A stretch of DNA of 64,000 nt from Escherichia phage vB_EcoM_VR25. Of this stretch, positions 52,967-64,000 are shown piece by piece; positions within the stretch are counted from its first letter, which is position 1, and the number at the start of each line of letters is the position of its first letter. The notes beneath the pieces are model-generated. The model ran no database searches. It saw only the letters and a program-made list of their open reading frames with translations, and was not told the origin of the DNA. The position numbers and the translations under genes were made by a program. The stretch lies in sequence record NC_028925.1; one strand, given 5' to 3'.

Positions 52967-52969
52967 CTA

Positions 52970-52991
52970 GGGACCTTCGGGTCCCTTTTTT
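52970..52991 (+). terminator. Rho-independent terminator after gene 8
   Basis: GGGACC-TTCG-GGTCCC hairpin followed by T6. Confidence 0.8.
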
Positions 52992-52995
52992 ATTT

Positions 52996-53003
52996 TATAA
53001 ATA
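52996..53003 (+). promoter_or_regulatory. Late promoter (TATAAATA) for gene 9
   Basis: Exact TATAAATA about 28 nt upstream of the gene 9 ATG at 53031. Confidence 0.75.
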
Positions 53004-57920: not shown

Positions 57921-59507
57921 ATGATTAACAAATTAGAATTAGCGAATCTTCCGTTTGTCGATGGTGTACCAGAAGCTGACCAGAAACGAATTGAATGGAT
58001 TCGCAACGGTGATTGCTTAACTGCAGCCACTACCAAATACGGGCACGATGGTGCCCTTAATGCTGCAGCTTTGGGTGTGCAGACCAACGTTGAAACTCTG
58101 GAAAAGAATGACACGACCACTAAAGACAAAGTAAACGAAATTGTCGATAGCGTTAACCAGATTAAAGAAGCTCTGGATATTTCTACAGATGCAAGCGTTA
58201 TTCAACAGATTGAAACCAACCGTATTAATATTGTAAGCCTCCAGACAGGATTAGCTGAAACTGATATTGCTTTACTTGATACCAGTACAAATCTCGGTGA
58301 ATTACAGGAAGATGTTGGTTATTATAACCCACTGGAAGATGGACCATATTTGACCGTGCGCGCCAATATTAATCGTATTAAGCGCGAAATGGGCCATTAT
58401 GCGAACCAAGATATCAACGGTGACCCATTGCCTGAAGGTGAAACCAATGATGCCACCGGGATGAAACGTATTATCATCGATAACAGTACGGCAATTGCAA
58501 CCACGCAACGTCGTCTTACTATTCTCGAAGATAATTATAATGATTCGGATGTTGGTGGCCTCACGATTAAATTAAATGAGATGCGCGAAGAACTTGGTCC
58601 TCGCACTGAAGGTATTGGTAAATCTCCTGTTTATACTCGTTTGACTGCAGTCGAAGCTAAAGCGGAAACTAATGAAACTGATGTAAGCAATATCAAAGCC
58701 GCAATTGGTTTTGACCAAGGACAAAGTATTGCAAACCGTGTTGGGACTCTGGAAACCAAGGCAACAAATTTAGAAAATACCACATCTGGTATGAATACAA
58801 GATTGTCAACGGTTGAAACTGATATTGGCACTGATGCCGAACCTACTTCAATTAATGGTCGTCTAAAAACGTTGCGTGACGATATGACAGGTGTTCGTGT
58901 TGTTATCGGGGAAAATACAAGCAGTGGTTTGCAAGGACAAGTTGTTGCCCTTAACGTTGCAGTAGGTATTAGCGATAGCCCGGCGCCAACTTCCTTGATT
59001 CCGCGTATGCGTGAAGTCGAAACTTCTAGTCGCGCAAATACCGCGGCTATTCAGGATATTCAGGCTGAAATTGGTAACAATCAGTCAGGCATCAAAGGTT
59101 CTATCCTGACGATTAAATCACAAATCGACGGGACTAACCCAAACGGTTCTACGGTTGCTGAAAAAGGTATTCTTCCGACTGTTGAAACTCTTAACAACGA
59201 AATGCCTACCAAAATTAGTGATGCTCCATCTGATACGAAGATATATGGTCGCCGTGATGCAGCATGGGTAGAAATCGCTACAGGCGGTGATGTATCTGCT
59301 CTGACATTGCGTGTGGATGGTATCGAAACGCGCACCGGTGAAGCCGAGACGAAGATAACTGAACTAGAAGGTAAAGTATCAGCCCTAGAAACAGAGCTCT
59401 CCAAAAGGCCTCCTGTCGCCCCTGCGGCTGATGGTCTTCCTTATGTACTTGTTGATAATGCATGGGTTCTTTTGTCTACATTCGTGACATTAAATCCAGC
59501 GCCATAA
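57921..59507 (+). CDS. wac: Fibritin (whisker antigen control) Wac
   Basis: 528 aa coiled-coil protein, ATG start; C-terminal foldon-like ...GLPYVLVDNAWVLLSTFV. Confidence 0.92.
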   Translation: MINKLELANLPFVDGVPEADQKRIEWIRNGDCLTAATTKYGHDGALNAAALGVQTNVETLEKNDTTTKDKVNEIVDSVNQIKEALDISTDASVIQQIETNRINIVSLQTGLAETDIALLDTSTNLGELQEDVGYYNPLEDGPYLTVRANINRIKREMGHYANQDINGDPLPEGETNDATGMKRIIIDNSTAIATTQRRLTILEDNYNDSDVGGLTIKLNEMREELGPRTEGIGKSPVYTRLTAVEAKAETNETDVSNIKAAIGFDQGQSIANRVGTLETKATNLENTTSGMNTRLSTVETDIGTDAEPTSINGRLKTLRDDMTGVRVVIGENTSSGLQGQVVALNVAVGISDSPAPTSLIPRMREVETSSRANTAAIQDIQAEIGNNQSGIKGSILTIKSQIDGTNPNGSTVAEKGILPTVETLNNEMPTKISDAPSDTKIYGRRDAAWVEIATGGDVSALTLRVDGIETRTGEAETKITELEGKVSALETELSKRPPVAPAADGLPYVLVDNAWVLLSTFVTLNPAP

Positions 59508-59513
59508 CAAAAA

Positions 59514-59531
59514 GGGCTTCGGCCCTTTTTT
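59514..59531 (+). terminator. Rho-independent terminator after wac
   Basis: GGGC-TTCG-GCCC hairpin followed by T6. Confidence 0.75.
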
Positions 59532-59533
59532 CG

Positions 59534-59541
59534 TATAAATA
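59534..59541 (+). promoter_or_regulatory. Late promoter (TATAAATA) for gene 13
   Basis: Exact TATAAATA about 19 nt upstream of the gene 13 ATG, followed by AAGAGGAAAA SD. Confidence 0.75.
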
Positions 59542-59559
59542 CAGTAAAGAGGAAAACAT

Positions 59560-60498
59560 ATGGCAACTGAATCATACAACCCGAAACAATTAAAAGATGC
59601 AATCCTTCGTCGTCTTGGTGCACCAATCACGAATATCGAAGTTACGACCGAACAGGTTTATGATTGTATCCAGCGTGCATTAGAATTATATGGCGAATAT
59701 CATTATAATGGTTACAACAAAGGCTATCAGGCTTTTTATATTGGTCATGATGAAGTTTCACAACAGAAATTCCGTGATGGTGTTTTCGATTTAAAAGGTC
59801 GTAATATTTTTGCAGTAACACAAATTATTCGTACTAACGTCGGTTCATTAACTTCAATGGATGGCCAGGCAACATATCCATGGTTTACAGATTTCGTTCT
59901 GGGACTTGCCGGGATTAACGGTGGGATGGGTAGCTCGTGTAATAGCTTTGGGCCAAATGCCTTTGGTGCAGACCTTGGTTATTTTACACAGCTTATGCAA
60001 TATCGTTCGATGATGCAAGACCTGATGGTTCCACTGCCAGATTACTGGTATAATGACGATACTGAACAACTTAAAATTATGGGCAACTTCCGCCAGGGAG
60101 ATGTGATTGTAATTGAAGTTTACACCAAATCCTTTAATGGCGTTGATGCAATGGCCAGCAATACGGCAGGTTATGGTTATGCTTCTGGTGATTGTTCAAA
60201 TCCATGGAACACTGGTGCGCAGTGGGATAACCCTGCACGCAGAATAAGCGGCATGAGAGCTGGTGAGGACCTTGGACTTCAAGATGGCGCATACAACAAC
60301 CGTTGGGTGAAAGACTATGCCACGGCGCTTGTTAAGGAAGTTAACGGCAACGTATTGGCAAAGCACCAGGGAATGATGATGCCAGGTGGAGTTACGGTTG
60401 ATGGTGTTCGTTTAATTGAAGAAGCTCGTATGGAAAAAGAACGTCTCCGCGAAGAACTTGACCTGCTGGATGCACCGACTCCTATATTGGTGGGCTAA
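59560..60498 (+). CDS. 13: Neck protein gp13
   Basis: 312 aa (T4 gp13 309 aa), ATG start. Confidence 0.95.
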
Positions 60499-61283
60499 TG
60501 ACTACATACGACGCAAGATTATTCGCCCGGCTCGAAGACGGGACCGGGTATGACAATACCAATGCTACAGAGATATTGAACCCTTATGTAAACTTTATGC
60601 ATCATGAAAATACCCAGACTTTAGCCGATGCTATTGTTGCTGAAAGTATTCAGATGCGCGGGATGTCTCTCTATTACATCCCAAGACAATTCGTTAAACC
60701 AGATTTGTTATTCGGTGAAGACCTCCAGAGTAAATTTGATAAAGCATGGAAATTTGCTGGTTATCTGGATACGTTCGATGCTTATCAGGGTGATGGTTCC
60801 ATCTTCAGTAAATTTGGTATGACTGTGAATGATGAAATCACAGTGTCGATTAACCCTAATCTGTTTAAACATCAATGCAACGGCACCGAACCTATTGCAG
60901 GGGATTTGATTTATTTCCCTCTTGATAACAGTCTGTTCGAAATAACCTGGGTGCAACCTTATGACCCGTTCTATCAGGTAGGTCAAAACGCCATCCGTAA
61001 AATCACCGCGAGCAAATACATTTACTCCGGAGAAGAGCTTAAACCTGAATTGCAACGAAATGAAGGTATTAATATTCCAGAATTCAGTGAGCTCGATTTG
61101 CAACCAATCCACAATATCGATGGCCTTACAGATATCAGTGATATCCCTTATGCTGAATCCGATGAGATTAACGCAGAAGCAGCTGAATATGTTAAACCAT
61201 ATTTTGTGCAGAATGGCCGTGGACTTGAGTCACCGCCTAAGGCAAAACAGGATAGCTTTGACGATAGTTTCTTTGATGAATAA
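60498..61283 (+). CDS. 14: Neck protein gp14
   Basis: 261 aa (T4 gp14 256 aa); start overlaps the gp13 stop. Confidence 0.95.
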
Positions 61284-61297
61284 ATACATTTATTAAT

Positions 61298-61314
61298 GCG
61301 CCCGAACTGGGCGC
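61298..61314 (+). promoter_or_regulatory. GC hairpin immediately upstream of the gene 15 SD
   Basis: GCGCCC-GAACT-GGGCGC hairpin followed by CTGGAGG SD and a TTG start; no U-run, so not a typical terminator. Confidence 0.4.
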
Positions 61315-61326
61315 CTGGAGGTTACT

Positions 61327-62198
61327 TTGTTTGGGCATTTTTATAATTCGTCTCTGCGTCGCTATATCGTTTTAATGGGCGATTTATTTTCCCATGTACA
61401 AGTGGCCAGAACCAGAGAAGACACTGGACTTAAATATATTAAGGTCCCTATTTCCTATGCATCAAAAGAAAAATTCATGATGCAGCTTGGAAAATGGACC
61501 GCAATTCAGAATACACCGACTCCTGACATGTCACCACAAGAACGTGCTGCTCAGAAGGCTAAAATCGAGACCGTACTGCCCCGTATGAACTTACATCTTG
61601 TTGACTTGATGTATAACGGGCAATATAAAACGGCTCTCCAGAATCACACACAGGCGCGATTTGCTAATAACGACCCTCGCAAGCAGATATCTCAATATTC
61701 TCCGGTGCCGGTCAAAATGATTTTTGAGCTTGGAATATATACAAGGCATCAAGATGATATGTTCCAGATTATCGAACAAATCATGCCTTACTTCCAGCCA
61801 CATTTTAATACAACTATCACCGAACTTTACACGAATGAAATTACATTCGAACGTGATATACGAATCGTGCTTCAGTCCATTGCTATGGATGAGCAAATTG
61901 AAGGTGATGCAATGACTCGTCGTAGACTCGAATGGTCCATTATGTTCGAAGTCAACGGTTGGTTATATCCACCGGTTAAAGAAGTGGCCGGAGAAATCCG
62001 TACTATCTATCTTGACTTCTTTGCAAATTCCAGAGAGCTTGCGCCGGAAGGTAATTTCGAATCTGTTGACTCGGAAGCCGTTCCGCGAGATGTCGACCAA
62101 GAAGACTGGCAAGGTGAATCCGTTCAAACATACTCGCAGGATATTCCTGTACCGGTTGACCCAGCGCCTCCAGCACCAAGAAAAAATAGGGTACCATT

Positions 62199-62202
<4 letters not shown>
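61327..62202 (+). CDS. 15: Tail sheath stabiliser/tail terminator gp15
   Basis: 291 aa; N-terminus [13 protein letters not shown] matches T4 gp15 MFGYFYNSS; start codon appears to be TTG, 7 nt after GGAGG. Confidence 0.9.

Positions 62203-64000
<1,798 letters not shown>

Follow-up and report, generated by a model that had tools for sequence, protein, structure and literature searches.

A UUG start codon and a conserved GC stem-loop as separate features of the gene 14-gene 15 junction in Escherichia phage vB_EcoM_VR25 and other T4-like phages

We analyzed the junction of genes 14 and 15 in a 64,000-nucleotide (nt) stretch of Escherichia phage vB_EcoM_VR25 (NC_028925.1), hereafter the window. 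Gene 15, which encodes the tail sheath stabilizer or tail completion protein gp15, begins there with a TTG codon behind a short GC hairpin. Comparison with related phages shows UUG to be the real initiation codon of gp15, and shows the stem-loop to be a selected RNA-level structure that roughly half of the T4-like lineages have at this junction, whichever start codon follows. The hairpin and the weak start are independent of each other, and both are ordinary at this junction in T4-like phages. We consider it probable, if by no means certain, that the junction forms a compact expression module (a late-promoter-like box, an AT-rich stretch, the 6-bp GC stem-loop, a Shine-Dalgarno (SD) sequence and the UUG), in which the leader provides stability and insulation and the UUG lowers initiation. 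Coordinates are given in Table 1.

Over 701 nt around the gene 15 start, the window shares 99.7% identity with Escherichia phage vB_EcoM_VR7 (Gaprivervirus, Tevenvirinae), and 29 other records match the same stretch at 96-99% identity. For a wider comparison the junction was taken from 13 annotated genomes and 80 IMG/VR loci. In the window, the gene 15 frame is closed by an in-frame TAA at 61294-61296, 33 nt upstream of the TTG, and only a CTG, with no ATG or GTG, lies between the two. An earlier note on this DNA, made from the sequence alone, had reported no in-frame ATG nearby; that holds for this interval but not downstream, where codon 17 is an ATG 48 nt from the TTG. The predicted product matches Pfam PF16724 over profile positions 1-244 of 245 (E = 1.8e-100) and the T4 gp15 structures (PDB 3j2m/4hud; E = 3.5e-103), with residues 1-285 aligned onto 1-271. 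The TTG codon aligns with Met1 of T4 gp15. At the same codon an ATG is found in T4, RB69 and the Dhaka-, Jiaoda-, Marfa-, Moon-, Teguna- and Gualtarvirus. The comparison with other T4-like genomes had been suggested in the earlier note, where an ATG in relatives was to count against the TTG; that reasoning was misconceived, as such an ATG is present but marks this very codon as the start.

The ratio of synonymous to nonsynonymous changes in codons 2-16 is 6:1 against Dhakavirus, 8:1 against Kanagawavirus and 4:4 against T4. By this measure codons 2-16 are under purifying selection, and hence translated. The TTG itself is invariant in all nine Gaprivervirus sequences (window/VR7, VR20, VR26, SP18, CJ20, MN01, P479, DK-13 and UPEC01). 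The agreement of nine genomes excludes a sequencing error, which had been raised as a possible source of the TTG. The upstream in-frame stop, the alignment with Met1, the synonymous bias of codons 2-16 and the invariance in nine genomes therefore identify the TTG as the start, as first proposed from the window alone. Upstream of it stands GGAGG (61317-61321) followed by TTACT, a spacer of 5 nt rather than the 7 nt counted before. The SD, extended to GGAGGT, has 6 nt of anti-SD complementarity, and relatives keep its position relative to both hairpin and start.

The TTG start is already annotated in VR7, VR26, P479 and CJ20. In the remaining four of eight GenBank/RefSeq annotations of close relatives, those of SP18 (NC_014595), MN01, DK-13 and UPEC01, Met17 is used instead and 16 conserved residues are lost; the Met17 start in these records is wrong. 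Records of gp15 are likewise shortened by 15-16 residues, from Met17 or Leu16, in RB69 (NC_004928), Proteus phage phiP4-3 (NC_055737) and Acinetobacter phage Maestro. The records are too short because the gene caller skipped a TTG or ATT start, with the exception of RB69, whose gp15 is shortened despite an ATG at the true start.

Start codons of gene 15 were scored at the conserved M1-F2-G3 position in 55 loci, and one rule, the nearest start within -8 to +3 codons, was applied alike to genes 14, 15 and 16. Gene 15 starts with ATG in 43 loci, TTG in six, GTG in three and ATT in three (12/55 non-ATG). Genes 14 and 16 of the same loci start with ATG in 41/41 and 40/40 cases (0/81 non-ATG; Fisher p = 9e-6 versus gene 15). 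At 88% amino acid identity, 9 of 36 clusters have a non-ATG member, the background in the VR7 annotation being 8 of 118 coding sequences. Gene 15 thus seems to have a particular propensity for weak starts. In bacteria AUU is a very rare start codon, infC and pcnB being the examples. An ATT appears to open gene 15 in three separate lineages of T4-like phages: Proteus phage phiP4-3 and Shigella phage vB_SdyM_006 (Bragavirus), the Acinetobacter AbTZA1/Maestro group (Hadassahvirus), and one metagenomic contig. In each, upstream in-frame stops leave no room for an earlier ATG, the SD is good, and the synonymous to nonsynonymous ratios for codons 2-16 are 7:0 (phiP4-3/vB_SdyM_006), 9:2 (AbTZA1/Maestro) and 8:0 (metagenome). 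Our literature search found no description of start-codon variation in gene 15.

Drift could also account for the TTG. The ancestor of Gaprivervirus might have fixed a neutral or slightly deleterious codon whose effect is offset by the strong SD, with its 6 nt of complementarity; there would then be no adaptive tuning and no relation to the hairpin. Only one A-to-T change separates ATG from TTG, three of the clusters mix ATG and non-ATG members, so that switching seems easy, and non-ATG starts are not rare, making up 8 of 118 coding sequences in the VR7 annotation. Drift does not readily explain why non-ATG codons are concentrated in gene 15 and missing from genes 14 and 16 of the same genomes, nor the three ATT lineages: in E. 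coli the canonical non-AUG starts (UUG, GUG) give 10-100% of AUG initiation, and AUU only 1-2% (bioRxiv 10.1101/063800). AUG starts are moreover generally shielded by purifying selection against replacement by GUG and especially by UUG (PMC5622118). We regard drift as a possible but doubtful explanation. The pattern fits a gene-specific tolerance of, or selection for, weak initiation, and lends some support to the down-tuning of gp15. In the VR7 annotation, TTG is also the putative start of rpbA, of nrdC.11, of a gene for a MobB-like homing endonuclease and of gene 5.1, while 46.2, nrdH and ORF086c have putative GTG starts; the CDS starts concerned include 1662, 17802 and 42405 (- strand) and 46046 (+ strand), counted within VR7 29800-79799.

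The hairpin begins 14 nt past the gene 14 stop and consists of six G-C pairs, with a predicted stability of -12.4 kcal/mol on its own. Its description in the earlier note, GCGCCC-GAACT-GGGCGC without a U-run, is borne out. This exact inverted repeat occurs once in the window and in none of 100 shuffles. Perfect GC hairpins as a class are about ten times as frequent in the window as in shuffled sequence, and are denser in the non-coding 9% of it. Hairpins and boxes were counted among representatives of 30 T4-like lineages, a hairpin being scored if it was perfect, with at least 5 bp of which at least 4 were G-C, and lay within 60 nt upstream of gene 15. Such a hairpin is present in 16 of the 30 lineages, where 0.19 are expected from shuffles of the same 60 nt, and in none of 270 coding control windows. 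In 12 of the 16 it ends beside the SD, 11-15 nt before the start codon.

The stems are identical in all nine Gaprivervirus sequences and vary between lineages: GCGCCC, ATGGCGCA, CCCGGC, GCGGGC, AGCCCGG, GGGCC, GCCCGG, ACGGCTC, TGGCCC, AGGCC, GGGACC, AGAGGGC and, in RB69, ACCGG(TC). In a MAFFT alignment of 14 junctions they fall in differing registers, which makes column-wise covariation meaningless; per-lineage detection of hairpins with shuffle and coding controls was used instead. Because the structure is conserved while the stem sequences differ, the stem-loop is judged to be selected at the RNA level. Orthologous loops include UUCG (Kanagawa-, Moon- and CC31-like phages), GAAA (RB69 and lineage L023) and GCAA (lineages L024 and L025). 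The window hairpin has the pentaloop GAACU and lacks a UUCG or GNRA tetraloop closed by C-G. An Rfam search assigned the hairpin to no family, the best score being 16.4 bits for Spot_42 against a gathering score of 80. In Kanagawa-, Karam- and Moonvirus-like lineages a motif, AAGCATAT(A), is found between box and hairpin, about 20-35 nt upstream of gene 15.

A tie between the hairpin and a non-AUG start was considered and rejected. The hairpin is present in 5 of 9 non-ATG lineages and 11 of 21 ATG lineages (Fisher p = 1). Because orthologous hairpins are equally common with both kinds of start, hairpin and TTG are not one tuning device; judged across lineages, the hairpin belongs to a conserved box-hairpin-SD module and not to the TTG. 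Of the translational tuning first proposed for the two together, the part that stands concerns the start codon, and the contrast with genes 14 and 16 bears on it indirectly: gp15 may be tuned relative to gp14.

In T4 the late promoter is TATAAATA at -13 to -6, and A at -13 is the commonest variant, in 9 of 50 listed T4 sites (PMC2988020); the T at -13 is poorly conserved in other T4-like phages (PMC1524935). The box over the gene 14 stop of the window, AATAAATA, has A at this position. Of the 30 lineages, 17 carry NATAAATA at that stop, where 0.8 would be expected, with N being A in nine lineages, C in six, T in one and G in one. The box is followed by the AT-rich segment CATTTATTAAT (61287-61297), of which 10 of 11 positions are A or T (criterion of PMC2988020). 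If the box is active, transcription is predicted to start near 61292, and the hairpin would then begin some 6 nt behind the 5' end. In lineages that have both elements, the box always comes first, then the hairpin and then the SD. Late promoters predicted in the Nolan 2006 supplement (PMC1524935) cover the gene 14 stop of RB69 (97979-98021; stop at 98003-98005) and, in Aeh1, lie shortly before gene 15 (148910-148952; gene 15 at 148962). The conservation of the box suggests that AATAAATA may act as a promoter.

The module that we consider probable would run from AATAAATA over the gene 14 stop through the AT-rich stretch and the 6-bp all-GC stem-loop to GGAGGU, 2 nt further on, and the UUG. The stem-loop would most likely be a leader or intercistronic element for stability and insulation. 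If the box fires, it would stand some 6 nt from the transcript 5' end; on mRNA that reads through from the promoter of gene 13, it would form an intercistronic barrier. It may guard against RNase E or an exonuclease and may hold the adjacent SD single-stranded. The UUG would lower gp15 initiation relative to AUG. One gp15 hexamer is needed per virion, a low copy requirement. Since T4-like lineages have repeatedly changed to UUG, GUG and AUU at this position, a weak codon may be tolerated or favored in gene 15 specifically. The output of genes 16 and 17 could also fall if they are coupled translationally to gene 15; more speculatively, a weak gene 15 start could limit terminase output, because genes 15/16 and 16/17 overlap. 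In T4 mRNA decay RNase E has a major part, and it prefers 5'-monophosphate ends (PMC3014915).

The hairpin might instead be chiefly the 3'-end structure of a gene 13-14 late transcript that begins at the perfect TATAAATA found at 59534, between wac and gene 13. It would either terminate or attenuate transcription weakly, without a U-run, or block 3'-5' exonucleases once the transcript has been processed. Genes 15-16-17 would then have less mRNA than genes 13-14, and tuning would act on transcription or mRNA stability and not on translation. We think this rather doubtful. Its position 14 nt past the gene 14 stop agrees with such a role, and in several genera two to four T follow the orthologous stem (Dhakavirus GCGCCATTTTAGG, lineage L024 GGCCCTTTGG, Jiaodavirus GGTCCCTTAGG). 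In this phage, however, the stem is followed by CTGGAGGT, without a T-run, and a terminator scan of the + strand found nothing at the hairpin. An intrinsic terminator is thus rejected here, since the GC stem is present but a U-rich tract is not. A prefix search of the Nolan 2006 supplementary files for RB69 98020-98059 returned no terminator entry (PMC1524935). The other two long spacers of the late region, at wac-13 (59510-59541) and at 52969-53003, also have a GC hairpin beside a late promoter, but there the hairpin precedes the promoter. At the 14-15 junction, and in all relatives with both elements, the box comes first, and a transcript started at the box would therefore have to pass the hairpin too. 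For the 14-15 hairpin we accordingly favor a leader or intercistronic stability element over a 3'-end barrier.

These two spacers deserve brief description. The wac-13 junction (59508-59562) contains a AAAAAGGGC-TTCG-GCCCTTTTT hairpin at about 59512, with a terminator-like C(UUCG)G and flanking A and T runs, then a perfect TATAAATA at 59534-59541, an SD and the gene 13 ATG at 59560. In layout it is a textbook terminator-then-late-promoter unit. The same layout recurs at the other spacer, where a perfect TATAAATA (52996-53003) comes after the hairpin AGGGACC-TTCG-GGTCCCT (52969-52986) and the next gene starts 28 nt further on.

Folding predictions raise a different possibility. In contexts of 51-131 nt the minimum free energy (MFE) structure, at -17.7 to -18.2 kcal/mol, is an alternative fold, incompatible with the simple hairpin, in which two guanines of the SD and that of the UUG lie buried; its pair probability is 0.97 in contexts of 51-67 nt, and the best fold that keeps the hairpin has -14.9 kcal/mol. 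The leader could thus be bistable, the simple hairpin freeing the SD (ON) and the alternative fold hiding half of it together with the UUG guanine (OFF), so that gp15 initiation would be very low or conditional. The alternative fold depends on GGG as the codon for Gly3, used for 11% of glycines in late genes; with GGT, GGA or GGC the hairpin has a probability of at least 0.92. Two loop polymorphisms within the genus, A61305G and C61307T, keep the alternative pairs as G.U, although they are equally neutral loop changes if only the simple hairpin forms. Several other observations speak against bistability. The alternative fold is confined to Gaprivervirus, all other hairpin-bearing lineages giving the simple hairpin, and the simple hairpin returns to the MFE structure at 251 nt. 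The fold z-score is only -2.0, and the native sequence ranks 53rd in stability among 128 synonymous variants. During transcription the simple hairpin forms first, and 8 bp of complementarity within 40 nt is plausible by chance. A bistable leader is therefore, in our view, quite unlikely.

In the T4 genes e, soc, 49 and I-TevI, structures that sequester the translation initiation region cut translation up to 100-fold (PMC3014915). As in the alternative fold predicted for short contexts of the window, the SD or start lies in a helix. In these T4 genes, however, the late promoter lies within the DNA of the 5' strand, and late transcripts escape. A late promoter inside the inhibitory helix, of the e/soc type, was rejected for the window because the geometry is unfit: the predicted start near 61292 precedes the 5' strand at 61300, and box-started and read-through transcripts would both keep that strand.

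We also considered a broader proposal, which we hold to be unlikely. Selection across lineages for weak gene 15 starts, heading a possibly coupled 15-16-17 block, would keep the tail terminator and the terminase scarce, and would be reinforced in Gaprivervirus by a bistable leader in which the hairpin competes with the fold arising from the rare GGG codon 3 that occludes the ribosome binding site (RBS).

Protection of the adjacent GGAG from the phage endoribonuclease RegB is a further role that the hairpin might have. RegB cuts within GGAG/U of initiation regions and is inhibited by RNA secondary structure (PMC3014915). A regB gene was found in the VR7 stretch matching the window, and the SD GGAGG is just 2 nt from the stem. 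However, the GGAG is outside the stem, late transcripts with intergenic GGAG/U are all RegB-resistant, and decay of late mRNA is not accelerated by RegB (PMC3014915). We consider this role very improbable.

Several points weigh against the expression module that we prefer. T4, Tegunavirus and Gualtarvirus are without the hairpin, which is thus dispensable. The T4 junction (AF158101; positions 559-599 of the fetched locus) retains only GCCCGG, which in the Marfavirus hairpin GCCCGG-AAACC-CCGGGC forms the 5' arm; the 3' counterpart seems to have been lost in T4, and the hairpin seems dispensable in Tequatrovirus. The lineages counted are phylogenetically related, and the counts do not represent independent events. 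Part of the AATAAATA box is the gene 14 stop codon itself, and AATAAATA is found five times in the window against 7.5 expected; because the motif is not enriched, its putative promoter status rests on its conservation at the junction and on the published variant promoters. With a predicted single-stranded 5' stretch of about 6 nt, the stem-loop may stand too far from the end to protect in the classical 5'-terminal manner, local folding prefers the structure that occludes part of the RBS, and the strong SD may offset the weak codon. Promoter activity, the function of the hairpin and the size of any translational effect are all matters that we infer.

Known systems resemble parts of the junction. 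VR7 gene 15 has the same TTG start in a near-identical locus, and T4 gp15 is collinear from residue 1, although T4 differs in having an ATG start and no complete hairpin at the junction. The GC stem-loops of T4 mRNAs are likewise short, very stable GC stems in late-gene spacers, and the window has two more (52969 and about 59512); the 14-15 hairpin is a conserved member of this familiar class of stem-loops between T4 genes. The UUCG tetraloop is said to have been first described in T4 intercistronic regions by Tuerk et al. in 1988. Its first discovery was in T4 mRNA (PMC4371310). The 14-15 hairpin differs from the UUCG class in having an ordinary GAACU pentaloop, and its place downstream of the box is the reverse of the order at the other two junctions. 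E. coli genes with weak starts (infC and pcnB with AUU; UUG in 3% of genes) place a near-cognate codon behind a good SD, as gene 15 does. Gene 15 shows no evidence of IF3-linked autoregulation, and gp15 is a virion structural protein. The ompA leader reportedly carries a 5'-terminal stabilizing stem-loop (Emory, Bouvet and Belasco, 1992). The likeness to it lies in a stable stem near the predicted 5' end followed by a ribosome-bound SD as second protective element; the difference is that the 5' end in the window is a predicted one, and about 6 unpaired nt may be too many for the ompA mechanism.

Table 1. Positions of genes, signals and predicted RNA structures around the gene 15 start of the window
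Feature	Position	Strand	Description
wac	57921-59507	+	From the list of open reading frames (ORFs)
Gene 13	59560-60498	+	ORF list; VR7 annotation
Gene 14 (neck protein / head closure Hc2)	60498-61283	+	ORF; annotated as gene 14 in VR7 (NC_014792)
Late-promoter-like box AATAAATA	61279-61286	+	7/8 match to TATAAATA, A at -13; overlaps gene 14 stop
Gene 14 stop TAA	61281-61283	+	Preceded by GAT GAA; followed by ATACATTTATTAAT up to the hairpin
GC hairpin	61298-61314	+	5' arm GCGCCC 61298-61303, loop GAACT 61304-61308, 3' arm GGGCGC 61309-61314
Predicted alternative fold	61300-61336	+	61300-61307 (GCCCGAAC) with 61329-61336 (GUUUGGGC); inner helix 61313-61315:61320-61322
SD GGAGG(T)	61317-61322	+	2 nt 3' of the hairpin (CT between)
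TTG initiation codon	61327-61329	+	Followed by TTT GGG CAT TTT TAT AAT TCG TCT (MFGHFYNSS)
Gene 15 (tail sheath stabilizer / tail completion protein)	61327-62202	+	TTG-start ORF; 291 amino acids
In-frame ATG	61375-61377	+	Met17 of gene 15
Gene 16	62199-62690	+	ORF list
Gene 17 start	62674	+	Within the end of gene 16

The order wac-13-14-15-16-17 is the same in the window, in VR7 (NC_014792, where gene 15 is VR7_gp178) and in T4. The gene 15 stop and the gene 16 start share ATGA (62199-62202), and genes 15, 16 and 17 form a tightly packed block, possibly with translational coupling. Positions 1-50000 of the window are not collinear base for base with VR7 29800-79799, despite the close match at the 14-15 locus; position-wise comparison fails, which implies indels, and the window may thus belong to a VR7-like phage other than VR7 itself. 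A 78-amino acid ORF at 61060-61296 (+), in another frame within gene 14, is annotated as hypothetical protein CJ20_171 in phage CJ20 and is probably spurious. In the Acinetobacter phage Henu6 (336-596 of the fetched locus) a Mob-like homing-endonuclease gene lies directly upstream of gene 15, at the place expected for gene 14, and the annotated gene 15 start (ATG at 547) looks doubtful. A further locus, L017, also has unrelated sequence upstream of gene 15.

The main practical consequence of these observations is the correction of gp15 annotations, as the missing residues are among the best conserved of the protein. The general understanding of these phages is unchanged by what was found at the junction. 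The tendency of gene 15 toward weak starts provides a testable hint that T4-like phages may set the level of gp15, and perhaps of terminase, low at the step of initiation.

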